DNA of 32,000 nt, from contig NC_007335.2 of assembly GCF_000012465.1 (NCBI RefSeq), positions 1,080,001 to 1,112,000 on the forward strand, read 5' to 3'. The first letter of the stretch is position 1. The number at the start of each line of letters is the position of its first letter. Origin of the DNA: Prochlorococcus marinus str. NATL2A. Lineage in GTDB: Bacteria; Cyanobacteriota; Cyanobacteriia; PCC-6307; Cyanobiaceae. Position numbers and translations under genes: made by a program. The notes below the pieces were generated by a model, which was not told the DNA's origin, did not search any database, and was given only the letters and a program-made list of their open reading frames with translations. Shown piece by piece: positions 9,901 through 29,021 of the stretch.

Positions 9901-9947
9901 TATTTATTTTTTTTGTTGTACTTAGAGCTCTATATTGATTAGAAATT

Positions 9948-14006: not shown

Positions 14007-14065
14007 AACAATCAGCTTTGATCTCATTCCTGACACAAAAACCTGTGCTAGAGCAAAGACATTTA

Positions 14066-14145
14066 AAAAGACAGGCTGGCAAACTTGTTTATGACTGATC
14101 GGGGAGCTCAGGATTAGAGCCTGCTACAAAATGCTCCTAAAGCAC
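14066..14145 (-). repeat. decayed tRNA-Pro 3'-half scar plus terminator hairpin (copy R1)
   Basis: aaaaagacaggctggcaaacttgtttatgactgatcggggagctcaggattagagcctgctacaaaatgctcctaaagcac aligns with the better copy at 28752..28827. Confidence 0.65.
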
Positions 14146-14285
14146 TGAACAGCATATCGGTAATACTAGGTTTTTGAGCTATAGTAATATCGTCAAATTT
14201 TGCCGAGTTTGTCATGACAAATAAAGCAATATTTGTCTGCAATTTGTCCGCATATTTAAAATAGATAAAAGGTAACTTTGACAAA

Positions 14286-15008
14286 ATGGCTACCAGAATT
14301 AATAAATATTTAAGTGAAGTCGGTTACTGTTCTAGAAGAGTCGCAGATAGACTAATTGAAGAAGGAAAAGTAGTCATTAATGGTAAAATTCCAGAAAAGG
14401 GTACGAAGGTAGAGGAAGGTGATCAAGTAAAAGTTGACGGTCAAAGAATAGAAAAATCAACGAAACAAAAAAATATATACTTAGCCTTTAATAAACCTGT
14501 TGGGATTGTTTGCACAACCGATAGAAGAGTAGAACACGACAACATTATAGATTTCATTAAATATCCTACAAGAATTTTTCCTATTGGAAGATTGGATAAG
14601 CCCAGTGAGGGACTAATTTTTTTAACTAACGATGGAGATATCGTAAATAAGATACTCAGAGCAAGAAATAATCATGAAAAAGAATACATCGTAAGCGTTA
14701 ATCGTCCGATTAATAGAGACTTTATTCAAAGTATGAGTAATGGAGTTGAAATACTAGAAACTATAACTAAGAATTGTTTCGTAAAACAATTGGGGGCGAA
14801 AAAATTTAAAATCATACTCACTCAAGGACTTAACCGTCAGATCAGGAGAATGTGTGAGTCCTTAGGCTACAGAGTAGAATCATTAAAGAGGGTAAGAATT
14901 ATGAATATTAAGTTAGACGTACCAATTGGAAAATATCGCGAATTTACCAAAGAAGAACTTTTAGAATTAAATGGATTACTCGAAAACTCTTCAAAAACAT
15001 TTGACTAA
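14286..15008 (+). CDS. rluF: 23S rRNA pseudouridine synthase, RluF/RsuA family
   Basis: N-terminal S4 domain RINKYLSEVGYCSRRVADRLIEEGKVVINGK. Catalytic motif FPIGRLDKPSEGLIFLTNDGDIVNKILRA..HEKEY. C-terminal LTQGLNRQIRRMCESLGY. Collinear with E. coli RluF as I remember it. Confidence 0.9.
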   Translation: MATRINKYLSEVGYCSRRVADRLIEEGKVVINGKIPEKGTKVEEGDQVKVDGQRIEKSTKQKNIYLAFNKPVGIVCTTDRRVEHDNIIDFIKYPTRIFPIGRLDKPSEGLIFLTNDGDIVNKILRARNNHEKEYIVSVNRPINRDFIQSMSNGVEILETITKNCFVKQLGAKKFKIILTQGLNRQIRRMCESLGYRVESLKRVRIMNIKLDVPIGKYREFTKEELLELNGLLENSSKTFD

Positions 15009-15095
15009 TCAAATATCCCCTCTTTTTTAGCTAAACAAGATTACATTTGTTTTTCTGTCTGCTTTTGTTGCGGACAGAATTTAATCAATAAAAAA

Positions 15096-15171
15096 GACAG
15101 GCTGGCAAAACTGTCTGTGATTGATAGCGGATCACAGGATTAGAGCCTGCTACCAAATGCTCCCAAACCAC
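15096..15171 (-). repeat. decayed tRNA-Pro 3'-half scar plus terminator hairpin (copy R2)
   Basis: gacaggctggcaaaactgtctgtgattgatagcggatcacaggattagagcctgctaccaaatgctcccaaaccac. Same architecture as R1 and R3. Confidence 0.65.
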
Positions 15172-15235
15172 TAAAAAGGGCCCCTTCTGTAATGACAGAG
15201 AAGAAACCTTATTTATTAGATTTTAAAAACTAGAC

Positions 15236-15361
15236 TTAAACAATTCCTGGGATGATCCAGCCTGTTAATCCGTAGTTAATCACAGCCGCAAAGAAGCCCA
15301 TCATCGCAAGGCGGCCATTCATTTGCTCGGCTGTTTTCCAGTAGTTAGTTTCTTTATTCAT
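15236..15361 (-). CDS. hli: high-light-inducible protein (41 aa)
   Basis: MNKETNYWKTAEQMNGRLAMMGFFAAVINYGLTGWIIPGIV carries the HLIP/CAB helix motif E..NGR.AM.GF. Its ATG overlaps the upstream TGA (TGATG). Confidence 0.85.
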   Translation of the reverse strand: MNKETNYWKTAEQMNGRLAMMGFFAAVINYGLTGWIIPGIV

Positions 15362-15510
15362 CACACGAAACCTGGAATGATTTGACCTGTTGTTGCATAA
15401 GCACCAACTAGAGCAATGCATCCAAACAATGCTGCATAGCCGTTAAGTCTTTCTGCAGTTACCTTTTCAGGATCAATGTTTCTTCTGTTGTTGTTGTTTT
15501 GAGTAGTCAT
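15361..15510 (-). CDS. hli: high-light-inducible protein (49 aa)
   Basis: Hand-translated MTTQNNNNRRNIDPEKVTAERLNGYAALFGCIALVGAYATTGQIIPGFV. Missed by the ORF track (<60 aa). Its ATG overlaps the upstream TAA (TAATG). Confidence 0.8.
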   Translation of the reverse strand: MTTQNNNNRRNIDPEKVTAERLNGYAALFGCIALVGAYATTGQIIPGFV

Positions 15511-15629
15511 TAAACAACACCTGGGATAAGTTGACCTGTTGTTAGGTAAACACCTGTTAGAAGAACGAATGCCATCATGGCTGGTCTGCCGATGCTTCTT
15601 TCTAGAATTGTTTTGTTAGATGGTTGCAT
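15510..15629 (-). CDS. hli: high-light-inducible protein (39 aa)
   Basis: MQPSNKTILERSIGRPAMMAFVLLTGVYLTTGQLIPGVV. The track ORF 15510..15728 is an artefactual N-terminal extension of this. Confidence 0.75.
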   Translation of the reverse strand: MQPSNKTILERSIGRPAMMAFVLLTGVYLTTGQLIPGVV

Positions 15630-15649
15630 TGTTGTTAGTAGTTGTTGAT

Positions 15650-15757
15650 TTAGAAAATTCCAGGAATGATTTGACCTGTTGTTGCGTATGCACCGAAGGC
15701 TGCAACGAAGCCCAGCATTGCTGCCCAACCATTAAACTTTTCTGCTTCTGGAGTCAT
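15650..15757 (-). CDS. hli: high-light-inducible protein (35 aa)
   Basis: Hand-translated MTPEAEKFNGWAAMLGFVAAFGAYATTGQIIPGIF. Motif E.FNGW.AM.GF. Confidence 0.8.
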   Translation of the reverse strand: MTPEAEKFNGWAAMLGFVAAFGAYATTGQIIPGIF

Positions 15758-15964
15758 TACTAGAATTGAGTAGATGTGTATGAACATAAAGTATTAACTT
15801 TGTGGCTTAAAGATACGGTCAGGTACGGCTTCTTCTAACAATCAATAGAAAGAAGCCTTAAACACTAATGACAGCAACTAATTAGAGAGATATTTATCCA
15901 ATGATTAGATCTGCTGATGACTCTAATAAGCATAAATAGCCCGAACCCGTACCCCTACTTCAAA

Positions 15965-16008
15965 CCCAATCGATTTAAGTAACAAAGGACGCAATAGACG
16001 TTTTATTT
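15965..16008 (-). repeat. D-repeat copy 2
   Basis: The reverse complement aataaaacgtctattgcgtcctttgttacttaaatcgattggg matches 24651..24703. Confidence 0.6.
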
Positions 16009-16152
16009 CCCCTCAAGACAAACAAAATTTTAAAAAGCCCCGCAGCTTTCATATCTTTATAAGCTTCTCCATTTTTTATGCATTGATCTAAATCTCTCAT
16101 TTCATTATTATCCAAACCAGACTCTCACATGTATAGGTCTTAACCAAACACT

Positions 16153-16218
16153 TTAAGCATTAGAAGCGATAAGAGAGAGAAGCCCAGCAGTTAGGGCATC
16201 TAGTAAAAAGCGTTTCAT
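16153..16218 (-). CDS. 21-aa signal-peptide-like ORF coupled to the upstream gene
   Basis: MKRFLLDALTAGLLSLIASNA. Its ATG overlaps the upstream TGA (ATGA). May be a truncated gene head rather than a functional peptide. Confidence 0.3.
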   Translation of the reverse strand: MKRFLLDALTAGLLSLIASNA

Positions 16219-16604
16219 TTTAATTCTTTTAAAACAGCTCGTGAAAATTCGAAAACCCCCTGAACGAGAACCCTTGAATAGACGGAAATAATAGCTAATG
16301 TCCAATAAGCCAATGGAATAACAAGGAGAATCCACCAAATCCTGAAAATATTTGACCAGATAAAATTTAAAGTTGGTATAACTCCAACAAATACCAAGCT
16401 TAAAAGAAAAGCCAATATCAAAACAAATTTTTTACCACCTTTCGTCTTGATAAAAGTCAGTAAGGGTCTTATAAATTTTTCAGGTAGCAAATCTGCCCAA
16501 CAAGATGGTCGATACTTTATCCAAAAGCCCATATCTTTTCTTATCTGTCTGTCATAGGCTGCAAGAATTTCTTTTAGTGTCTTCTTATTAGTCAAGCGGT
16601 TCAT
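16215..16604 (-). CDS. 129-aa membrane protein (operon gene 3)
   Basis: MNRLTNKKTLKEILAAYDRQIRKD.. followed by three hydrophobic segments. ATG at 16604 overlaps the upstream TGA (TGATG). Confidence 0.6.
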   Translation of the reverse strand: MNRLTNKKTLKEILAAYDRQIRKDMGFWIKYRPSCWADLLPEKFIRPLLTFIKTKGGKKFVLILAFLLSLVFVGVIPTLNFIWSNIFRIWWILLVIPLAYWTLAIISVYSRVLVQGVFEFSRAVLKELK

Positions 16605-16795
16605 CACCAAAGTCTCCTTTTGCCAGTCCAGTTATATAGCAACCAAATTACAAACCCAACCATAAACAAAGGCATAAAACTATCGAGTAATAAATAGGTT
16701 GAATAGACGATTAATGGAAAGAAGATGACACGTTTTATATTGAGACGTCTACCTCTCGATAGTTTTTTGAATGGTTTAAGGAAGAAGCGGTTCAT
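16604..16795 (-). CDS. 63-aa membrane protein (operon gene 2)
   Basis: MNRFFLKPFKKLSRGRRLNIKRVIFFPLIVYSTYLLLDSFMPLFMVGFVIWLLYNW.. The start is set at the internal Met whose ATG overlaps the upstream TGA (ATGA). Confidence 0.55.
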   Translation of the reverse strand: MNRFFLKPFKKLSRGRRLNIKRVIFFPLIVYSTYLLLDSFMPLFMVGFVIWLLYNWTGKRRLW

Positions 16796-17187: not shown

Positions 17188-17273
17188 TAATAGAATTCGA
17201 AAGTTGAAGTCACAGAACTTGTTGGTTCTCACTCGGCATTAAAGCATTTTCAAAAACTAATGACATCTTTTGC

Positions 17274-17456
17274 ATGCGTAATGGCATAGCTTGTTGCCTT
17301 GCTAACGGTTCCACTAATGCTTTACATCAGGGTGTTAGATACAAAAAAACCAGAATCAACAAATATAAAATTTACGGCTGGACTTGGAAAAAGATAGTTG
17401 ATATTTATGGCTTTAGTCCTACTACTGCTAGGCGGTGGCTTTGGCTTGAAGACTAG
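17274..17456 (+). CDS. small HTH-motif ORF; only copy of the C-repeat family with a start codon
   Basis: ..YGWTWKKIVDIYGFSPTTARRWLWLED has a classic helix-turn-helix pattern (W.KI....G.S..TARRW). The N-terminal 35 aa look non-genic, so it may itself be a remnant. Confidence 0.3.
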   Translation: MRNGIACCLANGSTNALHQGVRYKKTRINKYKIYGWTWKKIVDIYGFSPTTARRWLWLED

Positions 17457-17483
17457 GCAAAAGCAAACCCCATAGAAATCAAT

Positions 17484-17777: not shown

Positions 17778-17882
17778 TGTATTTTCCTTAATGTTTGTAT
17801 CTATTTTTACAAAAAATTGATTTGTGGCAATCAGTATTTATTTTGATCTTTCAAAAGTTTGATAGAACAAATGAATATTTCT

Positions 17883-17918
17883 ACTACTAATGTTCGTTTG
17901 AGTTAGGGCTTTCCAATC
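17883..17918 (+). repeat. A-element right-end fragment A5
   Basis: actactaatgttcgtttgagttagggctttccaatc. Confidence 0.55.
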
Positions 17919-18157
17919 TATTTTTTCTTTTTCTTGCTGTAATCCCGTTTGGTATCAACCTTGTTGCCTCGCAAATCAAGAGTACCTAAATACATCTCCT
18001 CTCCAAATAAATCGTTTAGTTGCTTTTCCGTAATTGGTTCAAGGGCAGGTGCCTCAACTATTTCTTCTTGGGGCATCATCTCAACCTCCTGTGCTTGTAA
18101 TGAAAGAGGGCAGAAAAACAAAAGAAGACCAAGAACAAAAGAGAAAAGTTTTTTCAT
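17918..18157 (-). CDS. 79-aa secreted protein
   Basis: Signal peptide MKKLFSFVLGLLLFFCPLSLQA, then an acidic region and a K-rich tail. The aaggag SD lies 2-3 nt upstream of the ATG at 18157. Confidence 0.55.
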   Translation of the reverse strand: MKKLFSFVLGLLLFFCPLSLQAQEVEMMPQEEIVEAPALEPITEKQLNDLFGEEMYLGTLDLRGNKVDTKRDYSKKKKK

Positions 18158-18163
18158 CTCCTT

Positions 18164-18179
18164 GAATCGACTGTCAACC
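18164..18179 (-). repeat. B-motif copy B4 (motif only, abuts SD of 17918..18157)
   Basis: The minus strand reads ggttgacagtcgattcaaggagATG. Confidence 0.5.
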
Positions 18180-18299
18180 AAGCTTTGAATCTACCAATCC
18201 GGATATTCCCCTTGGACTGGTTCTTCATAAAAATCACCTTTTTCTATCCCAGAGAAATATTCAATTAAAAACTCTGGCTGCTTTACTTGGTCTTCCAAC

Positions 18300-18467
18300 T
18301 TATGCGTCAGTTTCTTCTACTTGCTCAGTTTTTGTTTCTTGATTTGCTTTGTCTTTAGAGCAACCGCCTTCACCCCAACCCCAAGCAAGAGATGGACCAG
18401 CAATAACTGAAAGAGCAAAAACTATTGGAATAACCTTTTTCACTTTGAATTCAAAAGTAGGATCCAT
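18300..18467 (-). CDS. 55-aa secreted peptide
   Basis: MDPTFEFKVKKVIPIVFALSVIAGPSLAWGWGEGGCSKDKANQETKTEQVEETDA. Hand-translated. Confidence 0.4.
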   Translation of the reverse strand: MDPTFEFKVKKVIPIVFALSVIAGPSLAWGWGEGGCSKDKANQETKTEQVEETDA

Positions 18468-18664
18468 ATCTTAAGGGTATTTTTCTAAGTCCGTTAATTG
18501 CAGTTGATTCAACTACTTTTGATCATATTCCTGGCGCATATCTGACACAAACGGCTGTGTTAGCCTTGAAAATAAAAAACAACGGCTGGGAACCGCTGCT
18601 TAAATTTTTAATTCGGTCAAAAATAATACTTCTCCTATTTTTAGATTTTTGATATGAATGAAAT

Positions 18665-18928
18665 ATGGATACTCCTCTATTTTTAAAAGTAAAATGCGGT
18701 GACGCTGTTCTTTATGAAAAGGACCAGATTGGAAAAGTTCTTACATTTGTTGGCGGCTCTCGTGATCCTTATGCACCCTCACTCTTTCAAATTGCGAACG
18801 TAGATTCTGGAGAAATCCGCTGGATTCATGGTGAAGAAGTTACTGACATAGTTAGCGAATATCGGACAACAATCAAAAAGCCTTCTTCGCTTTACTGGCA
18901 AATACAGCAGCAACAACAACAACAATAA
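18665..18928 (+). CDS. small conserved hypothetical with poly-Gln C-terminus
   Basis: MDTPLFLKVKCGDAVLYEKDQIGKVLTFVGGSRDPYAPSLFQIANVDSGEIRWIHGEEV... ends QQQQQQQ. Paralog of 2693..2950. Confidence 0.7.
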   Translation: MDTPLFLKVKCGDAVLYEKDQIGKVLTFVGGSRDPYAPSLFQIANVDSGEIRWIHGEEVTDIVSEYRTTIKKPSSLYWQIQQQQQQQ

Positions 18929-18930
18929 AA

Positions 18931-18956
18931 AGAGGGGCTATTTGCCCCTCTTTTTA
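18931..18956. terminator. bidirectional rho-independent terminator
   Basis: aaaaAGAGGGGCtatttGCCCCTCTtttt is a perfect hairpin with an A-run and a T-run, placed between convergent genes. Confidence 0.75.
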
Positions 18957-18968
18957 TTCTTTCTAACC

Positions 18969-19122
18969 CTGCATAAGTCGCAGTTTCCCTTTTGTGGGAT
19001 GGTGAAAGGAGTAAATAGTTTCATAAGACCCCCTCTTTCTACACCTTTGGTCTAATCCTTCTGATTGCTTATTAGGAGTAGGAAAACACTACAAAAAGTT
19101 GAATAAAAAGTTAATTTCTAAG
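18969..19122 (+). repeat. G-element copy G3
   Basis: Fills the gap between terminator 18931..18956 and the stop codon of 19118..19282. Confidence 0.7.
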
Positions 19123-19282
19123 TGATCCTTCTGTTGATTCTTTTTCTTAAATTCTTTAGTTGAACATTGAATCTTAATCGCTTTATATGATCTAGCTTTT
19201 CAGCAATATCACTAGGCATGGTCCTTGCTGCCTTAACCATTGCGAAAGCATACCTATGAGTCTCTTTGGGAAAAGAATCCAT
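19118..19282 (-). CDS. 54-aa 'MDS..HRYAF' family paralog
   Basis: Hand-translated MDSFPKETHRYAFAMVKAARTMPSDIAEKLDHIKRLRFNVQLKNLRKRINRRIT. Missed by the track (<60 aa). Confidence 0.6.
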   Translation of the reverse strand: MDSFPKETHRYAFAMVKAARTMPSDIAEKLDHIKRLRFNVQLKNLRKRINRRIT

Positions 19283-19385
19283 GGTCGAAGCACGGTTTGG
19301 TTTTAATACGATGCCGAAACGATAATCATTTGTCTATAAAGAAAATTACTTAAATTGCCCACCTCCGAGCAAGAGATAAAGAAAA

Positions 19386-19521
19386 GATTGGATAGCTCTA
19401 CCTCAACCGAACAGCAGTAGTGGAGAAGTTCTTTTTAAAATGTTCTTAACTTGATGACGTACTAAGAGGCGTAATCAAATTAGATCGGGGGACAGTCGAC
19501 GAAATCCTGTCCTCTCTTCGC
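19386..19521 (-). repeat. A-element copy A3 (inverted)
   Basis: gattggatagctctacctcaaccgaacagc ... gatcgggggacagtcgacgaaatcctgtcctctcttcgc. Confidence 0.75.
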
Positions 19522-19716
19522 AAAACTTCCTCACACAGTTTTAGTCAACCCTCCGCTGAGAGGGTTTTCTTTTATGGCTTCATTTGATAAAGCAGCATTC
19601 GAAAAGAAAGCTTTTAAGTTTGTTCCTTATCTTATTTTGGGAAAAATTATATTTGCCGCTTGGTTTATTTCCTACTTAGTGAAGCTTTAACTTTTGCCTA
19701 GTTAGCAACTCATGTC

Positions 19717-19733
19717 CCACCGCCTAGCAGCAG
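19717..19733 (-). repeat. C-repeat copy C4 (left half only)
   Basis: ccaccgcctagcagcag = reverse complement of ctgctgctaggcggtgg. Confidence 0.5.
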
Positions 19734-20046
19734 TTTGACTAATGCCATGTATATCAGCGTAACTTTATTTATAACAAGAGTATTAATTGAACTAGATCAG
19801 CCAGAAAGGTAGAAAAGGTAATTTGATTAATGCCGATCGGAATTATTTTTTTAAGAATTTAATTAGCCGTAGACAACTGTTTCCACAAGAAGCTAAAAAC
19901 AAATTCACTAGATTTTCACCTCTTGTCTATATCAGTACTTCTTTTTGTCCTGAAAGTACGATCAAGGAATTAGGAATCAAAAATCGGCCGAAAAGGACTT
20001 GTGATGAAAGTCCTTTTAATTGGATATATGACAACAAGGAGACTTG

Positions 20047-20793
20047 CTACTGTTTATCAAGCTGGTTTAGAAACTTTCTACTTCTCTCGTGTCTTGCATT
20101 AGAAAAGAAGATATTTGGAGGAGATGTTTCTATGACTTTACCTGAATCCATAAATAAAACTTGATCACTGACGTCTTTAGCAAAACCAATTTCGTGTGTT
20201 ACAACAACCATTGTCATTCCTTGCCGAGCAAGTTTTCTCATTGCATCGAGTACTTCGTTGATTCGTTCTGGATCTAGAGCGCTAGTGGGTTCATCAAATA
20301 GAAGTAGTTCAGGCTTTAAGGCTAAAGCTCTAGCGATGGCTACTCGTTGTTGCTCTCCTCCGCTAAGTTGACTTGGGTATTTTTTTGCATGTGAATCTAT
20401 TCCCATTTGATTTAAAAGATACATGCCATATTCTTCCGCTTCAGCTTGACGACGTTTTTGCACATGTACTGGAGCGAGAGTGATGTTTTCAAGGATTGAG
20501 AGATGAGGGAATAAATTGAATTGTTGAAAAACCATTCCTACTCTTCTTCTTATTTTTTGGATTTTCCTTTCATCATGAGTGGAATCTATTTTTATTCCTA
20601 GAATATTTAGTTCTCCTCTATCAAAAGTTTCAAGACCATTAAAAGTTCGAATCAGAGTACTTTTCCCTGAGCCTGAGGGACCCATGACTACTAGGACTTT
20701 CCCTTGATTAACTGTAAGAGAAACATTGTCGAGAGCTCGTAATCCTTTTGTGTAAGACTTAGAGAGATTCTTCGCAACAACAATAGGTTCCAT
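20047..20793 (-). CDS. aapP: amino-acid ABC transporter ATP-binding protein
   Basis: Walker A GPSGSGKST, signature LSGGEQQRVAIARAL, Walker B LLLFDEPTSALD, H-loop VVVTHE. Confidence 0.95.
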   Translation of the reverse strand: MEPIVVAKNLSKSYTKGLRALDNVSLTVNQGKVLVVMGPSGSGKSTLIRTFNGLETFDRGELNILGIKIDSTHDERKIQKIRRRVGMVFQQFNLFPHLSILENITLAPVHVQKRRQAEAEEYGMYLLNQMGIDSHAKKYPSQLSGGEQQRVAIARALALKPELLLFDEPTSALDPERINEVLDAMRKLARQGMTMVVVTHEIGFAKDVSDQVLFMDSGKVIETSPPNIFFSNARHERSRKFLNQLDKQ

Positions 20794-20799
20794 GAATTA

Positions 20800-21834
20800 T
20801 TAGAAATTAGCTTGATTAATGGTCATTCTTTGTTCAAGATGTCTTGCAAGAACAGCCATGATTGTACAAACGATCCAATAGACACACGCTAGCCAAACAT
20901 AAACTTCAATATATTGACCAATAAATTCTGGATTAGCCAGGATACTTCTGCCTATGCCTAGTAACTCCACTAACCCTAAAATAGCCATTAACGATGTATT
21001 TTGAAAAAGTCCAATGGATTGATTTGTGAGAGCAGGTAATGCAATGCGTAAAGCTTGAGGAATTAATATGAATTGTATGATTTGGTATTGATTAAGGCCA
21101 AGACTATTTGCTGCCTCTATTTGAGTGTTGGGAATTGACTGTAGTCCGCCACGAATGTCTTCCGCTATGTACGCTGAGACAAATAGCGTAAACGCAAAGA
21201 TAGCTCTCCAAACACGATCAATTTCTATTTCAACTGGGAGAAATAAAGGTATTAGTAGTTGACCAAAGAAAAGCACTGCAATAAGCGGTATTGCTCTCAT
21301 AACATCTATAAAGATTGAACTTAGCTTTTGAATTATTGGTAATGAACTATGTCGACATAGTGCTAAAATTATTCCAATTGGTAATGATAATAACGAGCTA
21401 CAAACAGTTAGCAGTATAGTTAGAGTTAATCCACCCCATTGTCTACTCATTATAGGCGATAAGCCAATTCCACCATAAAGTAAATATAGACCCAATGGTA
21501 TTGTTCCTACCCACAGTATTAGTAGGTGTTTACGTAGCCATTTCCACTCAGGACCATAAAGAGTAAAGATACTGAGTGAAAGAAGACTGATGATCCAAGT
21601 AGCAGGTCTCCATTGTTCATTAGATGGAAAACTACCAAATGCGTATAAAGGGAGATTTGATATTACAACTTTCCAATTAGCCTTAAATATGAGCCATTCA
21701 AAAGTATTAAAACAAGCTACGCTAAGAAATAATATAATGAGCAAAGTAATAATTGTATTGAATAAATTTGAAAACAATGTTTTTCTTGCATTCTTGAAGA
21801 AAATTATTAATGAACTTGTATAAATTCCGAACAT
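20800..21834 (-). CDS. aapM: amino-acid ABC transporter permease (AapM/NatH-like)
   Basis: Polytopic protein with EAA-type loop FVSAYIAEDIRGGLQSIPNTQIEAANSLGLNQYQ. Confidence 0.9.
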   Translation of the reverse strand: MFGIYTSSLIIFFKNARKTLFSNLFNTIITLLIILFLSVACFNTFEWLIFKANWKVVISNLPLYAFGSFPSNEQWRPATWIISLLSLSIFTLYGPEWKWLRKHLLILWVGTIPLGLYLLYGGIGLSPIMSRQWGGLTLTILLTVCSSLLSLPIGIILALCRHSSLPIIQKLSSIFIDVMRAIPLIAVLFFGQLLIPLFLPVEIEIDRVWRAIFAFTLFVSAYIAEDIRGGLQSIPNTQIEAANSLGLNQYQIIQFILIPQALRIALPALTNQSIGLFQNTSLMAILGLVELLGIGRSILANPEFIGQYIEVYVWLACVYWIVCTIMAVLARHLEQRMTINQANF

Positions 21835-21837
21835 ATA

Positions 21838-22737
21838 TCAACTGTATCTTTGTGATTTTAAAATTAATCTATTTATGATTTCCATGGCATTAGTTATCAA
21901 TAAATTTAATAGCAAGAAGCTAAAAAGTAATATAATAAAACACTCGATAGCTCTACCTGTTTGATTAATGATAGTATCATTAATTGCGTAAATATCTGAA
22001 TATCCAACGGCTATAGCTAAGGTACTATTTTTAGCAAGGTTAAGGTATTGACTTGTTAGTCCAGGAATGATCGCTGGTAATGCCTGTGGAAGTATTATGC
22101 GGATAAGTCCTTTTCTTTCTGAAATTCCTAAGCTCCTAAACGCTTCCCATTGCCCTCTCGAAACAGAAAGAATACCTCCGCGGATCACCTCTGCTATGTA
22201 AGCACTTGTAAAGATACTTAGACCAAATAATAATGCTAGAAACTCCGAAGAAAAAGTTAATCCTGAAAACTCTATTCCTTTATTTGAAATATTAAATATA
22301 TTTTTTATTTGGATAAACATATTGTCTTTTAAACCTAAGAACCCAACAAAATACCAAAACATAAGTTGAAGTAAAAGAGGGGTTTGTCTAATTATTGTGA
22401 TGTAACCAGCCGAAATGAGACCTAGTAATGAATTCGTACCTGTCCTTGCAAAGCCTATCAGTGTCCCCAAGAAAGTAGCCAATATTAATGATGAGACAAT
22501 AACTTTAAGACTGTTAAGCCAACCTATAAATAAAGCCCAAGCATAGCTATCTGAAGAGGTATAAGGTAAGGGGTGTTCCGCTAAAGCAAAACTTGCTGGT
22601 TTAAAAAGCCAGCTAAAATTAAAACCAAGACCTGTTCTTATTAGATTTATTGTTAAATTATTAATCAGTATCCCAAATAAACCAAAAAAGATAATAGATA
22701 TTCCAAATTGCAAAAATAATTTTTGATTTTTTTTCAT
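21838..22737 (-). CDS. aapQ: amino-acid ABC transporter permease (AapQ/NatG-like)
   Basis: Polytopic protein with EAA-type loop FTSAYIAEVIRGGILSVSRGQWEAFRSLGISERK. Confidence 0.9.
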   Translation of the reverse strand: MKKNQKLFLQFGISIIFFGLFGILINNLTINLIRTGLGFNFSWLFKPASFALAEHPLPYTSSDSYAWALFIGWLNSLKVIVSSLILATFLGTLIGFARTGTNSLLGLISAGYITIIRQTPLLLQLMFWYFVGFLGLKDNMFIQIKNIFNISNKGIEFSGLTFSSEFLALLFGLSIFTSAYIAEVIRGGILSVSRGQWEAFRSLGISERKGLIRIILPQALPAIIPGLTSQYLNLAKNSTLAIAVGYSDIYAINDTIINQTGRAIECFIILLFSFLLLNLLITNAMEIINRLILKSQRYS

Positions 22738-22755
22738 TCCCGCAATAAATTATTT

Positions 22756-23817
22756 TTAGTTAAATGGTGGTGAAATATGTACACCTCCTTTCTTGTACAA
22801 CTCATTTTGTCCTCTTGGAATAGGTACTTCGCTATTTTGTCCTAAATGTCTTTCGTAAATCTCTCCATAATTGCCTGTTGAGCTAATTACTTTAACTACG
22901 AAGTCATTGCTAAGTCCAATTTTTTCTCCTAGTCCCCCATCAATACCTAAAAATCTTCTTAAAGGTTTTAACTGAGGATTATTCTTTGCAATTTGAACTT
23001 TTTTATCAATATTTGATTTTGTTATCCCTTGCTCTTCTGCCGATATAAGGGAAAAGACAACCCATCTCATTGCATCAGCTAGTTTCTGATCTTGGCCATC
23101 AGAAGCAGGAGCAAGTGGCTCCTTGCTCAATACATCATCAAGAATAATATGTTCTTGTGGATTCTTAAAGCCAGATCTAGCTGCAGCCAACTGTGAACGA
23201 TCAGAAGTCATAGCTGAACAACGACCCTGTAAATAACCAGCAACCACTTGATTAAGATCTTGATATTTGATTGGTGTATAAGGCAGTGAGGCACTCTCAA
23301 ATGCATCATTTATATTTTGCTCAGTAGTGGTACCTGAACCTACACATATAGATTTATTTGCAAGATCTTTGAGACCACTAATTTTACTTTCCTTCTTGAC
23401 CATCAATCCCTGGCCATCATGGAAGACAACTGGTGCAAAAGTTAATCCATTTCCTCCTGAGGAATCTCTACTGAGAGTGAAAGTGGTATTTCTTGACAAA
23501 AGGTCAATTTCCCCAGTTTTAATAGCTGTGAATCTTTCTGCTGCAGTTAGAGGTCTATATTGAATTTTTTCTGAATCTCCTATGATTGCAGCAGCAAATG
23601 CTTTACATATATCGACATCTAGTCCTTGATAAGTGCCATCACTTTTCAGAAAACTAAATCCAGGAATCTTTCCACTTACTCCACAAATCAACTCATTACG
23701 ATTTTTTATTAGGTTAAGTCTAGAACTATTGTCTTGATTTGTTGTCGCACAGCCAGCTGATAGAGCTGCTAGACCAACTATTACAGATACCAATCGACGC
23801 ATAATTTTTTTAATCAT
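22756..23817 (-). CDS. aapJ: general L-amino-acid-binding lipoprotein (AapJ/NatF-like)
   Basis: Lipobox LSAGC. Collinear with AapJ-type binding proteins as I remember them: LICGV..PGFS, RPLTAAERFTA..GE.DLLSRNTT.T..RD, HDGQG.MV, GTTTE.N, SKEPL.PA, VGNYGEIYER. Confidence 0.9.
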   Translation of the reverse strand: MIKKIMRRLVSVIVGLAALSAGCATTNQDNSSRLNLIKNRNELICGVSGKIPGFSFLKSDGTYQGLDVDICKAFAAAIIGDSEKIQYRPLTAAERFTAIKTGEIDLLSRNTTFTLSRDSSGGNGLTFAPVVFHDGQGLMVKKESKISGLKDLANKSICVGSGTTTEQNINDAFESASLPYTPIKYQDLNQVVAGYLQGRCSAMTSDRSQLAAARSGFKNPQEHIILDDVLSKEPLAPASDGQDQKLADAMRWVVFSLISAEEQGITKSNIDKKVQIAKNNPQLKPLRRFLGIDGGLGEKIGLSNDFVVKVISSTGNYGEIYERHLGQNSEVPIPRGQNELYKKGGVHISPPFN

Positions 23818-24107
23818 TAAATTTGATTTTCGCCAGTTATTTCTGTTTCCTAGGCAATTAAAGAAAATCTTTTACTTTTTCTTCATTGAAAGTTGTGATC
23901 CCAAAAATAAAGCTTACTAGATGTAATTTCTAATCTCCCTCAGTTTGATTTGGTCTTAATTATTGTGATTTATTTCCCTGTCTGGTGTTTACTTTATTTT
24001 TCTTTCTTGTGCTTTAGAACTTCTTTTTCAGTGGCTATTTTTGTCGCTAAGGGTAGAAAAAATTACGCAAAAGTAGTCGAAGCCTTTCCGCTTATGCAAA
24101 CACTTAT

Positions 24108-24129
24108 TTAAGCCATAGACCACCGACTG
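24108..24129 (-). repeat. C-repeat copy C8
   Basis: ttaagccatagaccaccgactg. 14 nt (cggtggtctatggc) are a perfect inverted match to C3. Confidence 0.65.
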
Positions 24130-24303
24130 AAAGTACTAGGAGAAACACTATAGAAGTGAGAGTTTCTTCCAGCTCCAACCATATTCTTACCTGTTAATTT
24201 TTGTTTTCTTAGTGACTAACGCCTAGATAAACAGCATTAGTGGAACCATAAGCACAGCGCAAAGCCATGCGAAAGCACAAGTAAATGACATTAATTTTAG
24301 AAA

Positions 24304-24367
24304 TACTTTTGTTAGAAGAGCCTGAAGAGATGGCCTTCTGTGCTGAAACTTTAAAAGAAGTATGTAA
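24304..24367 (+). promoter_or_regulatory. E-element copy 1, 28 nt upstream of ATG 24395
   Basis: tacttttgttagaagagcctgaagagatggccttctgtgctgaaactttaaaagaagtatgtaa. Confidence 0.55.
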
Positions 24368-24394
24368 CCCTGTTGAAGATTGTCACCACATTTA

Positions 24395-24655
24395 ATGAAT
24401 ACCCTGATCATCTCCACCTTTAGCTGCACTTTCGAGTCCTTTGAAAAAGATGTAAGTGGATTTATTACTGACATGGGTAAGGAAGTAGTTTCAGATTATG
24501 AGTTCGTCAAAGTGAATGACCATAAATCTCATTTACTTATGAATGTCTTAGATATGGATGCACTTTGTACTGAAATGACTTCAGATAAAGCTAAGGAGTG
24601 GGATAAAGCTAATAACTGCGAAGATACTGTTTATGGCATTGAGCTTGTTGAATAA
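24395..24655 (+). CDS. 86-aa small protein, paralog of 25305..25568 (DUF3764-like from memory)
   Basis: MNTLIISTFSCTFESFEKDVSGFITDMGKEVVSDYEFVKVNDHKSHLLMNV...AKEWDKANNCEDTVYGIELVE. Shares NDHKSH and EWDKANNC(E/K)D.VY with the paralog. Confidence 0.65.
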   Translation: MNTLIISTFSCTFESFEKDVSGFITDMGKEVVSDYEFVKVNDHKSHLLMNVLDMDALCTEMTSDKAKEWDKANNCEDTVYGIELVE

Positions 24656-24703
24656 AAACGTCTATTCCGTCTATTGGGTCCTTTGTTAATTAAATCGATG
24701 GGG
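24651..24703 (+). repeat. D-repeat copy 1
   Basis: aataaaaacgtctattccgtctattgggtcctttgttaattaaatcgatgggg. Contains an internal cgtctatt duplication relative to copy 2. Confidence 0.6.
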
Positions 24704-24824
24704 AGCATACAATCGAAATTCACCTGGAAAGTTATTCAGATTTATTCCAGACGGAATTGCTGATCTTTACGCAAGTAGAAATTCAAAAGTTAAAGCGGCT
24801 TGATTTGATCTCTCTGTAAATAAG

Positions 24825-24888
24825 TACTTTTGTTAGAAGAGCCTGAAGAGATGGCCTTCAATACTGAAACTTTAAGAGAAATATGTAA
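24825..24888 (+). promoter_or_regulatory. E-element copy 2, 26 nt upstream of ATG 24914
   Basis: tacttttgttagaagagcctgaagagatggccttcaatactgaaactttaagagaaatatgtaa. Confidence 0.55.
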
Positions 24889-24913
24889 TGGTGAGATTAA
24901 CTGAAATAAATTA

Positions 24914-25300
24914 ATGTCATTCGGAGCCGAGACGCCCTTTATTCTTCTTGCTCGTCTTCAAGTTAAGCCAGACAAAGTTCAAGAATATTTATTACTTGCA
25001 GCTAAAACTGATAAGGCTGTTGAAGATTCAGAACCAGGAATGATTCACCATACTTTTGATCAAGATTCTGAAGATCCTCTTTGTTTTGTTTGGTCCGAAG
25101 TTTATAAAAATGACGAGGCTTTCCTTGCTCATTTAGCAAATCCACCTGTAGAAGAATATTTACAAGGTCATGCAGAACTTGGCGATAATTTCACTGTGGA
25201 AGTTTATGGAACTGTTGGAGATAAATGTAAAACAGCTATGGAGGAAACTGGATTGCCATTAAAAATCTTTGAAAGCAAGCTTGGCTATAGCAGGGTCTAA
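24914..25300 (+). CDS. ABM (antibiotic-biosynthesis-monooxygenase/Dabb) domain protein
   Basis: FILLARLQVKPDKVQEYLLLAAKTDKAVEDSEPGMIHHTF...FVWSEVYKNDEAFLAHLANPPVEEY fits the ferredoxin-like ABM fold pattern. Confidence 0.75.
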   Translation: MSFGAETPFILLARLQVKPDKVQEYLLLAAKTDKAVEDSEPGMIHHTFDQDSEDPLCFVWSEVYKNDEAFLAHLANPPVEEYLQGHAELGDNFTVEVYGTVGDKCKTAMEETGLPLKIFESKLGYSRV

Positions 25301-25304
25301 TTAA

Positions 25305-25568
25305 ATGGAAAGACTATTTATTGTATGTACTTTTGACTGCTCGTTTGAGTACTACGAAGAAACCATAGAAAAGTTTGTAAAAGAATATGGAGATGGAGTT
25401 GTTATTGACTATGACTTAAACAAAATCAATGACCATAAATCACATTCTTTCTATAACGTCACAAGTTTAGAAGCTTTTGCAAAAATCCTCGATAATCCTT
25501 TCGCTAGAGAATGGGATAAAGCTAACAACTGCAAAGATATTGTTTATAAGCTTGACGGACCTTTATAG
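25305..25568 (+). CDS. 87-aa small protein, paralog of 24395..24655
   Basis: MERLFIVCTFDCSFEYYEETIEKFVKEYGDGVVIDYDLNKINDHKSHSFYNV..FAREWDKANNCKDIVYKLDGPL. Confidence 0.7.
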   Translation: MERLFIVCTFDCSFEYYEETIEKFVKEYGDGVVIDYDLNKINDHKSHSFYNVTSLEAFAKILDNPFAREWDKANNCKDIVYKLDGPL

Positions 25569-25678
25569 ATTATTTGTTAATTGTTAAAAATTAGATATAG
25601 ATATGAACCGCTTCTTACTCCTCGACCTAACCGCTGGCTTTTATCCCCTTTCACAAGATTGTTAACGACTACAAAGAT

Positions 25679-25885
25679 TCATTTACCGCCATTACATTGA
25701 ATAATTGCTACGACTGCTGAATTATATTTCTGACCTAGCTTTTCCATGCAATAAATTTCCGCTGTGGTTTTAATGGCTACTGGAACTTGAGTTAGAGCTA
25801 AAAGCATCAGTGCAAATCCAGTCCCTGGTGCATGAATATTTAATTTAAAACCGCTCATCCATCTTCTCTTAGACATGCATTTCAA
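25679..25885 (-). CDS. hypothetical 68-aa protein
   Basis: Only ORF in this interval. One hydrophobic segment, GFALMLLALTQVPVAI. Weak support. Confidence 0.35.
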   Translation of the reverse strand: MKCMSKRRWMSGFKLNIHAPGTGFALMLLALTQVPVAIKTTAEIYCMEKLGQKYNSAVVAIIQCNGGK

Positions 25886-26034
25886 TCATTTACTCCTTGT
25901 TTATAGCTATCCCTACGCGATAGTTAATGCTTGTATTAATTTTTACCTTTATCAAAGTCTAAGTCATGAAAGCAGGATGAATTAACTAAAAAATCGTTTT
26001 TCAAGTTAAAAATATTCTGCAAAATAAATTCTCA

Positions 26035-26382
26035 ATGGCCTCTAACTTTTATATCGTTCATCACGAATTCAGAGCTGGTACTTCCTCTAAGTGGTGGGAA
26101 ACTGCTTATGCAGCAATGGCTCCTGGTGGAGGATGGGATGAGGCTGTAGCAGCCAACAAAGAAAAAGGGTTTTTCAACCATTCAGCTAATGCTGTTACTG
26201 CAAATGGTCCTGTCTACTGTATTTGGGAAACAAAAGAAGGGATTTCCATAGAAGAATTCCAGGAATTCATTGATGGTCCTACAGGGCCTGGTTTTGGACT
26301 GAGTGCATTAATGAATATCTGCAAGCCAATAGATACATCATTAATGAACGGACAAACTCCATATCCAAGAGTTTTCTCCTAA
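26035..26382 (+). CDS. hypothetical 115-aa protein (possibly DUF4242-like)
   Basis: Clean ATG ORF. ..NGPVYCIWETKEGISIEEFQEFIDG.. resembles the DUF4242 core from memory. Followed by repeat/terminator L1. Confidence 0.6.
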   Translation: MASNFYIVHHEFRAGTSSKWWETAYAAMAPGGGWDEAVAANKEKGFFNHSANAVTANGPVYCIWETKEGISIEEFQEFIDGPTGPGFGLSALMNICKPIDTSLMNGQTPYPRVFS

Positions 26383-26400
26383 ACCTGTCAAAATAAAAAA

Positions 26401-26458
26401 GGTTGACAGCCGATTGCCATCGGAACAAGTGGGGCTGACTTAGGTCGGCCCCTTCTTT
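26401..26458 (+). repeat. L-element copy L1: GGTTGACAGCCGATT + CCGAT/ATCGG hairpin + GGGGCTGACTTAGGTCGGCCCC hairpin
   Basis: 19 nt after the stop of 26035..26382. Likely doubles as its terminator. Confidence 0.65.
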
Positions 26459-26557
26459 GTTCCCTATCGAAATAATAGGAAGTTGTACTTGAGTAAAAGC
26501 CGAGGTGTTTAAATCACAAGGAATCAAGTAGAACATATTCACCCGAACAGGAGGTTT

Positions 26558-26722
26558 ATGAAGCTAAGAACTCCATTTTCTGTAATCAAAAATGCTTTGA
26601 GTGATATTCGAGTAATGCATGATTTTAATTACGAAATTCCTGCAGAAACCAGAGATGAGTTTTGGAAAGAAGAATGTGAGGTCCACCCAACTTCTTCAAC
26701 ATGCAAAGTTTATGACAACTAA
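26558..26722 (+). CDS. CP12 C-terminal-module mini-protein (54 aa)
   Basis: Hand-translated MKLRTPFSVIKNALSDIRVMHDFNYEIPAETRDEFWKEECEVHPTSSTCKVYDN with a GGAGG SD 4 nt upstream. The C-x3-P-x4-C-(K/R)-x-YD(N/D) end matches the CP12 C-terminal loop (..YCDDNPEAAECRIYDD). Confidence 0.55.
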   Translation: MKLRTPFSVIKNALSDIRVMHDFNYEIPAETRDEFWKEECEVHPTSSTCKVYDN

Positions 26723-26737
26723 AAAAACAAAATTTTA

Positions 26738-26920
26738 ATGGATCCGTTTGATCCTGCTCTTCAAAGTACTGCCGTATCCGGAGTCAGGCCTTTACTGACT
26801 TTGGCAATATTTGCTGGATTAGGATCTTTTTTCCTTGGAGCACTTGTTACTGCTATTAGAAGGGGAATGAAAGAAAACGGTTGGTTTAAATTTAACCAAG
26901 AGAAAGAGAAGCAAGACTAG
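26738..26920 (+). CDS. 60-aa single-TM protein
   Basis: MDPFDPALQSTAVSGVRPLLTLAIFAGLGSFFLGALVTAIRRGMKENGWFKF.. Confidence 0.5.
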   Translation: MDPFDPALQSTAVSGVRPLLTLAIFAGLGSFFLGALVTAIRRGMKENGWFKFNQEKEKQD

Positions 26921-26978
26921 GCAATTGCTTCTTATAGTCCCTAATCTAAATAAGTCAATTTGGAGTCGATACAGATAT

Positions 26979-27125
26979 ATGGAATTTTTTGATGAGTTTA
27001 AAATTATTGGCGGGATCATTCCTAACTTGATTGGCTTAGCAGTTTTTTGCGGGGTGATTATTTATTTCGATCAAACTAGAAAAGCAAAAGTCAGACGAGG
27101 AGAAAAAGTCCCCCCTCATCAATAA
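26979..27125 (+). CDS. 48-aa TM peptide, 'IIGGI(V/I)PNLI' family
   Basis: MEFFDEFKIIGGIIPNLIGLAVFCGVIIYFDQTRKAKVRRGEKVPPHQ. The internal ATG is preferred over the TTG at 26925. Confidence 0.5.
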   Translation: MEFFDEFKIIGGIIPNLIGLAVFCGVIIYFDQTRKAKVRRGEKVPPHQ

Positions 27126-27130
27126 AAAAG

Positions 27131-27277
27131 ATTCTTTTTGCTAAATCAGAAATAATTGGTGGCATTGTTCCAAATCTGATTGCTTTTAGCTTGTTTCTTG
27201 GAGAAATTGGATATTTTACTTTGACTGAGAAAATGGCTGAGATGTTTGGTATTAGAAAACGGCCCAAATCAGATTAG
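27131..27277 (+). pseudogene. 'IIGGIVPNLI' family copy without canonical start codon
   Basis: ..KSEIIGGIVPNLIAFSLFLGEIGYFTLTEKMAEMFGIRKRPKSD* is near-identical to 13824..14006. No ATG/GTG/TTG lies between the upstream in-frame TAG (27077) and the conserved core. Confidence 0.35.
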
Positions 27278-27286
27278 TCCTCCACC

Positions 27287-27341
27287 GTTTGACCGCCGAT
27301 TCCTATCGGAACCAGAGGGCTGACTTAGTTCAGTCCTTTTT
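27287..27341 (+). repeat. L-element copy L2
   Basis: gtttgaccgccgattcctatcggaaccagagggctgacttagttcagtccttttt. In the first hairpin the stem is conserved and the loop differs from L1. Confidence 0.65.
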
Positions 27342-27675
27342 ATGTGAGAAGGAAACTGATCGAGGATTCCTAGATTCTTTTGTAAAGATCATGTGCCAAA
27401 GATTTCTAATAACACTACCCTCAGCGTATACTCATGACGAATTAAGTGACCTCAACGCTAGATAGGCCGTTTATCTATTCAGAAATTGTCACCCATACTA
27501 CTTTGGAACTAATGACCAAGTTGACCGAATATCCATCTCAAGCGAAGCAAGAAGCACTTATAGAAGCTCAGAGAAGTAACGAAGAAGTTCGTGTGCTTAG
27601 GAAATCTCATTCATAACAAGCGATTAAACAAGAAAATATACGTAAATGGATTCATGTAATAGCTATTTAATAGTT

Positions 27676-27752
27676 ATGGCTGGAATTGGAAAAAGATTGC
27701 TGATATTTATGGGGTAAGTCCAATTACTGCTAGGCGGTGGTCTATGGCATAA
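27676..27752 (+). repeat. C-repeat copy C3 (startless HTH ORF fragment ..GWNWKKIADIYGVSPITARRWSMA*)
   Basis: ~75 nt align with 17384..17456. An in-frame TAG lies upstream and there is no start codon. Confidence 0.7.
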
Positions 27753-27795
27753 AAAAGAGGGCTTAATTGCCCCCTCAATAATCGACTGTCAACCG
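27751..27795 (-). repeat. B-motif copy B3 directly abutting C3
   Basis: Plus strand: aaaaaagagggcttaattgccccctcaataatcgactgtcaacc. Confidence 0.65.
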
Positions 27796-27831
27796 AGCTT
27801 TTATTTTACAATTAACAGTCATCCCCAAGAC

Positions 27832-28464
27832 TTAAGGGATTACAGCAACCCAAGAGAAAGCAAGTCCTATTCCTATCCAAATCCCTGCAAATAAATTGCG
27901 ACCATTCAATCCAAATTTATCAATAACTGATTGAATGGATTGTGTGACCAGTAAAAGTAAGAATAGTTGCGCAAGAAGAAGGCCTAAAAAGTAACCAATC
28001 AGCGGTGTAGGTTCTGCACCAACGATGGTGCTTCCAAGTAAGTAGCCATGCAATGAAAACATTGGCAAAAGCCATTTAGTGCTCACAAGATTCAGAACAA
28101 TTAAGCCCTCTACAGCCAAAGTTAGAGAAACAAGTGCTTCTGCCCAAGGAGCTACTAAATCAGGCAAGGGCTGTAGTTGTACTAGTGCACTTCCTCCTAA
28201 TCCAACAGCTAAAAGTGGGAGAATCCATTTTATGGATCTCTTTAATCCCACCAGTGCGATTCCTAACATAAAAAGTAAATGATCAGGTCCAAGTAATGGA
28301 TGACCGATACCACTAAGGAGAGCTTGCCATGCTGAAAGATCAGTACTCTCTCCCATTCCAAAAGGATGATGAGCTAAAGCCGTGTTAGATAAAAAGGTAA
28401 GTAATAAAAATAATGGAGTTAAAACTGCAAGAGAATACTTGTGCACCAAAAAGTGAAACCTCAT
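27832..28464 (-). CDS. hupE: HupE/UreJ-family metal (probable cobalt) transporter
   Basis: Signal peptide, then HHPFG..LLSGIGHPLLGPDHLLFMLGIALVG (HupE/UreJ signature HP..G.DH). About 6 TM segments. Confidence 0.85.
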   Translation of the reverse strand: MRFHFLVHKYSLAVLTPLFLLLTFLSNTALAHHPFGMGESTDLSAWQALLSGIGHPLLGPDHLLFMLGIALVGLKRSIKWILPLLAVGLGGSALVQLQPLPDLVAPWAEALVSLTLAVEGLIVLNLVSTKWLLPMFSLHGYLLGSTIVGAEPTPLIGYFLGLLLAQLFLLLLVTQSIQSVIDKFGLNGRNLFAGIWIGIGLAFSWVAVIP

Positions 28465-28479
28465 AGGTCGATCCTCGTC

Positions 28480-28590
28480 GAATAGTAAATAAGGCGGGCA
28501 TTCTGACTGGTATCGAAGAAGATCGATACATCACAGTTGCGGGACAGCAGCGGATTCGCACCACTTTTCCCCATTACTTCAAATAGCTGA
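28480..28590 (-). promoter_or_regulatory. cobalamin (B12) riboswitch in the hupE leader
   Basis: The minus strand reads aatGGGGAAaagtGGTGcGAAtCCgctGCTGtCCCGCAACTGTgatg...gataccAGTCAGAAtGCCCGCC. That covers the conserved GGGAA / GGTG.AA.CC / CCCGCAACTGT core plus a B12-box-like AGTCAGAATGCCCGCC about 20 nt before the start codon. Boundaries are approximate. Confidence 0.8.
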
Positions 28591-28667
28591 TCACTATTCG
28601 AACCTCAGAAATAATTTAACCCTCGAGTGCCAAACATTATTAGAACGTAATAGCACCGTTACACCTA

Positions 28668-28755
28668 AGTCCGTTAAATCCCATTAGATCCCTTTATTTC
28701 AGGTAGCTCTTGGACGCAGTATGGACGCAAAGAAAAATAGGCATTAAAAAAGACA
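28668..28755. repeat. K-repeat copy 2 (flank of the tRNA-Pro scar R3)
   Basis: agtccgttaaatccc..ccctttatttca..tggacgcagtatggacgcaaagaaaaataggcattaaaaaagaca. Confidence 0.65.
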
Positions 28756-28827
28756 GGCTGGGAAACCTGTCTATGACTGATCGGGGCGACAGGATTCGAA
28801 CCTGGGACCTAGTGCTCCCAAAGCACC
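28752..28827 (-). repeat. tRNA-Pro(UGG) 3' half (anticodon arm to discriminator) plus terminator hairpin; not an intact tRNA (copy R3)
   Basis: The minus strand reads ggtgcTTTGGGAgcact aggtc ccagg TTCGAAT cctgt cgccccg a. That is an anticodon loop with UGG, a canonical T-loop, and the tRNA-Pro acceptor 3' strand CGCCCCGA. No matching CGGGGCG 5' strand or D-arm lies upstream. Followed by the hairpin gacaggtttcccagcctgtc + T6. Confidence 0.8.
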
Positions 28828-29021
28828 AACTTTCCATAATGAGACAAGCTTGTAATAATGATAGTCAGGCTATGACTTAATAGTCAAGATAGTAGTAACT
28901 ATAACGAGTCTCAGGGTTGACTTATTACTGGCCAAAGGTGACCGTAGAGTACCAATTGATCGCTCAAGGATCGCTCGCCTTAGGCCCTTGCTTCGACAAA
29001 AATAGATTATCAAATCTCATA

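Follow-up and report, generated by a model that had tools for sequence, protein, structure and literature searches.

Partial tRNA-Pro(UGG) genes in the window

The stretch of DNA analysed here (the window) comprises 32,000 nucleotides of Prochlorococcus marinus str. NATL2A, positions 1,080,001 to 1,112,000 of contig NC_007335.2, and contains three copies of the 3' half of a tRNA-Pro(UGG) gene, here called scars A, B and C. Reading from the intact tRNA-Pro gene, which lies just outside the window, the array consists of the tRNA, a block of ~4 kb with RCC1-like repeats, scar A, a riboswitch-HupE cassette, an ABM-domain gene (a putative monooxygenase), an integrase fossil, an amino-acid ABC transporter and a further remnant, E; inward from E there follow putative hli genes and small open reading frames (ORFs), scar B, rluF, scar C, genes for cupin, ClpS and ferredoxin, and remnant D. 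We consider it very likely that the window is the inner part of a tRNA-Pro(UGG) genomic island in a Prochlorococcus of low-light clade I (LLI) and that this island was built by serial site-specific integration. The coordinates of the features, given as window positions, are collected in Table 1.

The original prediction, made from the letters of the window alone, had placed three tRNA-Pro 3' halves at these sites, and both their coordinates and their sequences were borne out. When tRNA positions 26-63 were compared with the window without gaps, scars A, B and C matched at 36, 30 and 29 of the 38 positions, respectively; all three exceed the maximum of 23 obtained in 200 dinucleotide-preserving shuffles, and the next best real site in the window reached 21. 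A profile search with the ~90-nt unit gave E-values of 5e-29 (A), 4e-22 (B) and 4e-23 (C). In scar A the T arm reads GGTTCGAATCC and the acceptor strand CGCCCCGA. ARAGORN reported no tRNA in the window, and an Rfam scan of the window found riboswitches and Yfr13 and nothing at scars A to C, because the tRNA model gives half-tRNAs no score. In all three copies the tRNA identity begins at positions ~27-28, in the anticodon stem, and all three have the orientation of the intact tRNA-Pro.

Each scar is followed on its 3' side by a hairpin and then a T-run. The prediction that the same hairpin accompanies all three copies holds in that the hairpins are homologous across A, B and C, but they are not equally preserved. 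The GACAGG-N8-CCTGTC stem has no mismatch at A, one at B and two at C; the hairpin is intact at A, weakened at B and lost at C, where the folding energy is no better than that of its own shuffles (Table 1). The hairpin of the intact tRNA-Pro is a compensated variant, with GCAAGGG..CCCTTGC in place of GACAGG..CCTGTC. Elsewhere in the island, a terminator-like hairpin, GGGCTGACTTAGGTCAGTCC followed by T's, occurs in four copies on the plus strand (11375-11399, 13719-13743, 26432-26456 and 27317-27341).

The arms on either side of the half-tRNA and its hairpin, P upstream and P' downstream, contain short direct repeats. Repeats with at least 9 matching positions, mostly with an 11-nt period, were found downstream of 154 of 245 tRNA-Pro 3' ends, as against 1 of 245 in shuffled sequences. 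The 11-nt repeats are probably arm sites of an integrase, whose binding we infer from lambda-type systems. Within the window, TGCGTCCA is found only at A and D, and TGTGTCAG only at C and E. The motif TGCRGACA has three sites in the window, all confined to two arms, P' of B and P of C, so that a single former element, of which only rluF is now left, appears to have ended at B on one side and at C on the other. Matching repeats on both arms occur in 9 of 12 viral attPs, in 14 of 98 chromosomal scars and in none of the control windows. Their rarity in chromosomal scars is what serial integration predicts, because the two sides of such a scar would belong to different elements. Each copy thus has the make-up of an attR junction, with tRNA identity from the anticodon stem, a terminator hairpin and direct repeats of 11-nt period.

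Among the loci fetched from other genomes for comparison (designated by L numbers), the P arm of scar C adjoins partial tRNA-Pro copies in 12 of the 14 that carry it, including genomes with HL-type flanks. A 55-nt segment of this arm (14198-14252, minus strand), with TGCGGACAAAT twice and a palindrome, is present in 14 fetched loci (for example, L094 1933-1987 and L123 6527-6581). Its identity of 92-96% between this LLI genome and several loci with HL-type flanks seems high for such distant clades, and an integrase lies beside none of the 14 copies. A search of the fetched loci with the P arm of scar B gave matches to hli genes only.

Table 1. Scars, remnants and associated features, by window position
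Feature	Position	Strand	Description
Scar A	28781-28828	-	tRNA-Pro(UGG) positions ~27-73; anticodon arm with UGG
Scar A, terminator hairpin and T-run	28745-28772	-	AGACAGG-TTTCCCAG-CCTGTCT; -11.8 kcal/mol, z = -3.96
Scar A, P' arm	28711-28729	-	TGCGTCCA twice, 11-nt period; putative arm-type integrase site
Scar A, non-coding upstream stretch in P-arm position	28829-29021	-	lacks the integrase that canonical elements have here
Cargo directly behind scar A	27832-28622	-	gene for a HupE/UreJ transporter; cobalamin riboswitch (28476-28622); whole cassette missing from L158
Integrase fossil	24703-24795	+	3' end of a tyrosine-recombinase gene; HTIEIHLESYS, frameshift, FIPDGIADLYA; runs antisense to the tRNA, like the integrases of intact elements
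Remnant E	18528-18601	-	hairpin variant AGCAGCGG..CCGTTGT, -12.1 kcal/mol; P' arm repeats TGTGTCAGATA/TGCGCCAGGAA; tRNA part deleted
Scar B	15127-15173	-	decayed tRNA-Pro 3' half, 30/38; T loop CTCTAAT
Scar B, weakened hairpin and P' arm	15050-15115	-	-7.1 kcal/mol; arm with TGCGGACA (15069-15076, + strand) and GCAGACAG
rluF-like pseudouridine synthase gene	14286-15008	+	sole gene between B and C; has the position and orientation of the integrase in intact elements
Scar C, P arm	14148-14270	-	TGCGGACAAAT/TGCAGACAAAT direct repeats (14231-14252) and TTTGTCATGACAAA palindrome
Scar C	14099-14147	-	decayed tRNA-Pro 3' half, 29/38; anticodon changed to UAG
Scar C, collapsed hairpin and P' arm	14020-14089	-	-0.9 kcal/mol; TGTGTCAG-type arm, one repeat unit gone
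Remnant D	3311-3400	-	last bases of hairpin, T-run, P' arm TGCATCCA/TGCGTCCA (11-nt period); tRNA part deleted

The intact tRNA-Pro gene, free elements and related strains

An intact tRNA-Pro(UGG) gene with the 3' sequence of the scars had been expected beyond the right edge of the window. It was located on contig JBJBDX010000003.1 (GCA_047285025.1), which is 100% identical to window positions 17832-32000 and encodes the HupE protein of the window. In window-equivalent coordinates the gene occupies 32783-32856 on the minus strand, ~800 bp past the edge, and its 3' half differs from scar A at a single base (G49->C). The array has two of the properties expected of attR scars left by tRNA-targeting elements: repeats of the 3' part in one orientation, with the intact tRNA at one end of the array, and a constant 5' boundary at the anticodon stem/loop, a known integrase sublocation. 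The ~4-kb block between the intact tRNA and scar A has one gene (29022-31930, minus strand, running past the edge), which encodes a protein of 1108 amino acids with RCC1/WD40-like repeats, in tandem units of 126/138 nt, and a C-terminal DUF4214 domain.

Genome loci were collected with a pattern composed of the T arm, the acceptor strand and the first downstream bases. The 116 loci so obtained, nearly all from Prochlorococcus with a few from Synechococcus and Cyanobium, contain 43 intact and 182 partial tRNA-Pro copies, with up to 5 copies per 8 kb; in the partial ones, identity starts mostly at tRNA positions 25-29. The exact 42-nt 3' half is also found in 20 IMG/VR contigs. Eighteen of these have a partial tRNA with identity from the anticodon stem (GC|TTTGGG), and in 11 of the 18 an ORF of ~400 amino acids belonging to a tyrosine-recombinase cluster lies within 1.2 kb. 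A full attP was identified in one of these contigs, L022. Its integrase is followed by a P arm that carries TTGTACACAAA/ATGTACACAAA; then come the half-tRNA, an LLI-type terminator hairpin and a P' arm in which TTGTACACAAT occurs twice. Arm repeats TTGTACACAA flank both sides, with the terminator hairpin inside. This attP accounts for the presence of a hairpin at every scar, since the elements bring the hairpin themselves.

The integrases of the cluster, 26 in number, adjoin partial tRNA-Pro copies. In the relatives L158, L161, L075 and L060, a complete integrase is located 100-300 nt from homologous scars; in L158 and L161 the start of the gene, which belongs to this same family, is 101-156 nt from the scar and antisense to the tRNA. 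The L060 integrase matches PF00589 at 3e-7, and most of the cluster has no Pfam match at 1e-3. The original prediction held that no recombinase is left in the window; this is correct for a complete gene, but a frameshifted fossil of ~90 nt remains, representing ~30 codons of the C-terminus of a tyrosine recombinase and including the H-x-x-x-H-x-x-Y region. The fossil was supported by tblastn (78% over 18 amino acids, E 8e-5) and by blastn (37 of 46 nt) against the integrase gene of L060, the closest LLI integrase. A hidden Markov model of the integrase family gave a marginal match only (E = 1.8) to the six-frame translation of the window.

Comparison of strains agreed with the proposal that the blocks between scars vary as units. 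L161, which like L075 is from a related low-light-clade genome, is collinear with window positions 25787-28824 and departs exactly at scar A, where a tyrosine-recombinase element comes next; the same is seen in L075, and in L090 the intact tRNA is joined straight to the hairpin and flank of scar A, so that all three place the strain breakpoint at this scar. In L158 neither the ABC transporter nor any part of the riboswitch-HupE cassette is present, and an element with an integrase and McrBC takes their place; a related element in this locus bears AAA_25 and SNF2 helicase genes. At the place of the HupE cassette and ABC transporter, L159 has a type I restriction system. L157 contains a large serine recombinase and a capsid gene, and L034 has in common the upstream flank and a tRNA with the variant-1 hairpin and is different thereafter. 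Deeper in the island, NATL1A (CP000553.1) is collinear with window positions 4282-25000 at 97.6% identity. Scars B and C are both present in NATL1A and are common to all fetched relatives covering that stretch (NATL1A L149, L148 and L158), and remnant E is common to L158, L159 and L160. The island is thus most variable close to the tRNA, and the relatives that cover B, C and E, which lie deeper, have these scars in common.

Proposed serial integration and alternative explanations

The intact tRNA, the strain breakpoint, the attP elements and a published model (see below) all support the original view of the direct repeats as integration scars at a tRNA locus. With an order of events and a crossover point read from the anatomy of the att sites, we propose that elements with a divergent tyrosine recombinase would recombine their attP with the tRNA gene. 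In such an attP the same 11-nt repeats would be present in both the P and the P' arm, and between the arms would lie the tRNA-Pro 3' half, beginning at the anticodon stem, and then the terminator hairpin. Integration would restore a working tRNA and terminator from the sequence of the element, and the older 3' half would be displaced inward as an attR scar, along with the hairpin and P' arm that belong to it. Repeated rounds, followed by deletion of the integrases and other mobility genes, would yield the present array, in which the scars would decay after release from selection and neighbouring scars could still recombine.

Several observations weigh against this scheme. The window has no complete integrase or other mobility gene, so that no block in it can be demonstrated to be a former element. 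An integrase is likewise missing between the tRNA and scar A, and the P-arm region of scar A has no homologue in the fetched loci (its resemblance by eye to the ctgtctcaaattggagggc arm family was dropped for this reason). One hairpin variant was seen with several different P' arms; hairpin and arm thus do not always travel together. In the HL-type locus L103 the rluF 3' end is 86% identical and has no flanking scar, and rluF may be a resident conserved gene instead of cargo. That scars flank rluF in HL-type genomes as well was considered and rejected, since L103, the sole HL-type rluF locus, has no scar on that side. Finally, scars B and C have in common at least 6 derived substitutions that are absent from A and from the tRNA, which independent integrations alone do not predict; to judge from these, it is too simple to regard B and C as independent scars of increasing age. 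As for replication or hallmark modules of the primase/helicase type, none was found among the window ORFs scanned, whereas the L158 element has its AAA_25 and SNF2 genes; the blocks of the window are therefore remnants rather than elements.

The substitutions common to B and C raise the question of whether these two scars, or indeed all copies, stem from one old scar that was multiplied by local duplication or homologous recombination, for example through Campbell-style insertion of a circle consisting of rluF and one scar. Over 93 nt, B and C have 83% identity. A comparison of window positions 14057-14152 and 15083-15178 with L158 2177-2265 and 3179-3268 revealed a reciprocal swap: measured against the window and NATL1A, the two scars of L158 have traded their central ~26 nt, and their outer parts have stayed specific to position. 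Neighbouring scars thus exchange sequence. The pattern suggests either that the scars recombined reciprocally (or in a double exchange) or that the 1-kb rluF block was excised and inserted again, and because such exchange occurs, the likeness of B and C can be explained with the integration model retained. Against duplication, the upstream arms of B and C differ, that of C being the TGCGGACAAAT type that is widespread in other genomes; the confinement of TGCRGACA to the facing arms of B and C is what the ends of a single element should show; and different arm types are found at A, E and D. Duplication would cover the resemblance of B to C but not the whole array, and we regard it as rather unlikely, although it is the strongest competitor of serial integration.

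Somewhat less probable, in our opinion, is that the blocks without an integrase are non-autonomous cassettes still moved in trans by visiting integrases, which would make this an exchangeable array and not a graveyard. The clearest candidate for such a cassette is the rluF block between B and C, bounded as it is by matching arm-type sites. If this were the case, the swapped scar centres of L158 would be a trace of the excision and re-insertion of that block, and the 11-nt arm repeats would set which integrase moves which cassette.

It is improbable that the copies were kept for a function, whether as terminators of upstream genes or as tRNA-like processing or small RNA elements, and are not inert scars. 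The hairpins of A and E are strong, have T-runs and each stand at the end of a minus-strand coding region, and B and C of the window have conserved counterparts in NATL1A; however, the conservation of B and C is not above that of the surrounding DNA, the Rfam scan gave no family match at the scars, and decay increases with distance from the tRNA, with mutations in the T loop, the acceptor and the anticodon and loss of the hairpin at C. Ordinary tRNA pseudogenes, formed by duplication and 5' truncation with no tie to a mobile element, would fit the partial tRNAs and the lack of a recombinase close by in the window, but this explanation can be dismissed with near certainty, given the 5' boundary at the anticodon stem in the three window copies and most of the 182 partial copies elsewhere, the integrases that adjoin homologous scars in relatives, and the identical half-tRNAs that act as attP in viral contigs.

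Further remnants, cargo and relation to known systems

Remnants D and E, from which the tRNA part is missing, were recognized by their flanks. A profile match at 18568-18600 (minus strand) marks remnant E, the third hairpin variant; L133 has a complete scar whose flank matches E at 86% identity. Remnant D is 77% identical to the flank of scar A. Directly behind the P' arm of D lies a glutamine-II riboswitch (3186-3243, minus strand), and the cobalamin riboswitch likewise lies directly behind the P' arm of scar A. Both arms are of the TGCGTCCA type; one arm type thus precedes differing cargo under riboswitch control.

A number of other repeats were observed in the window. Just inside scar B, positions 15236-15745 (minus strand) contain three tandem units of ~150 nt (repeat family D4) that by eye resemble tandem high-light-inducible (hli) genes. 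A four-copy family of ~64-112 nt with the core GATGTTCGGTTGAGGTAGGGCTTTCC and a T-run at its end is located at 2054-2166, 5077-5140, 9806-9918 and 17869-17932; one copy is just upstream of the Yfr13 small RNA (2193-2268) and one has a weak match to the L20 leader. Copies of a family with a GGGGGC..GCCCCC hairpin and AATCGACTGTCAAC are found at 2313-2369, 2951-3007 and 27752-27808 (and at 18927-18948), and the copy at 27752 coincides with the left edge of the riboswitch-HupE cassette that is missing in L158. Dispersed duplicates with 77-84% identity pair 545-706 with 18952-19114, 17363-17438 with 27665-27740, and 13885-13990 with 27144-27249. The last of these pairs represents a small paralogous gene that lies behind a P' arm; 27144-27249, which resembles the flank of scar C, was rejected as an additional scar on this ground. 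Positions 27138-27372 are an indel relative to L158 and L163.

Under the serial-integration reading, the locus represents a clean and well-resolved case of the growth of a Prochlorococcus island at a tRNA gene, in which ordered att remnants have cargo behind them: the cobalamin riboswitch with the HupE transporter, the amino-acid ABC transporter and the putative hli genes. The useful parts of the anatomy are the hairpin borne by attP, the element-specific 11-nt arm repeats, the matching arms around blocks without an integrase and the exchange between neighbouring scars. Such anatomy may help to delimit degraded island elements and to pair the two ends of a single element.

Hackl et al. (bioRxiv 10.1101/2020.12.28.424599) include Pro(tgg) in a set of seven tRNAs that seed islands, and describe elements, the tycheposons, that integrate at the proximal tRNA and push older ones inward; in their account, scattered partial tRNAs and fragments of integrases are what older integrations have left behind. 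The window resembles these systems in the targeting of Pro(tgg), the full-length tRNA at the proximal end, the scattered partial tRNAs and fragmented integrases, the nutrient-uptake cargo and the peak of variability next to the tRNA. It differs in that it holds degenerate remnants only, with neither a complete integrase nor a replication module. In the text of the preprint the terms 'arm', 'direct repeat' and 'terminator' do not occur, and the terminator hairpin and the 11-nt arm repeats are not mentioned. The tycheposon work reportedly appeared later in Cell, in 2023. An earlier case is said to have been described by Coleman et al. in Science in 2006, where ~48 nt of the tRNA-Pro 3' end are reportedly repeated in island ISL3 of Prochlorococcus MED4 as a trace of integration. 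That case reportedly involves the same tRNA and the same idea, but a different clade (HLI, as opposed to LLI here) and different island content.

Integration sites in tRNA genes include an anticodon-loop class (Williams 2002, Nucleic Acids Res 30:866, cited by Hackl et al.). The present sites resemble that class and lambda-type att sites with arm-type integrase-binding repeats in the block of identity from the anticodon stem to the tRNA 3' end, in the integrase gene beside attP and in the direct repeats on both the P and P' arms. They differ in that the integrases are highly divergent and that the crossover position and the protein binding are ones that we infer. The phenomenon itself is already known, being the published tycheposon or island-accretion mechanism of Prochlorococcus, and no new principle is involved; the details of the arm repeats and terminators are small additions that are in line with classical integrase biology.

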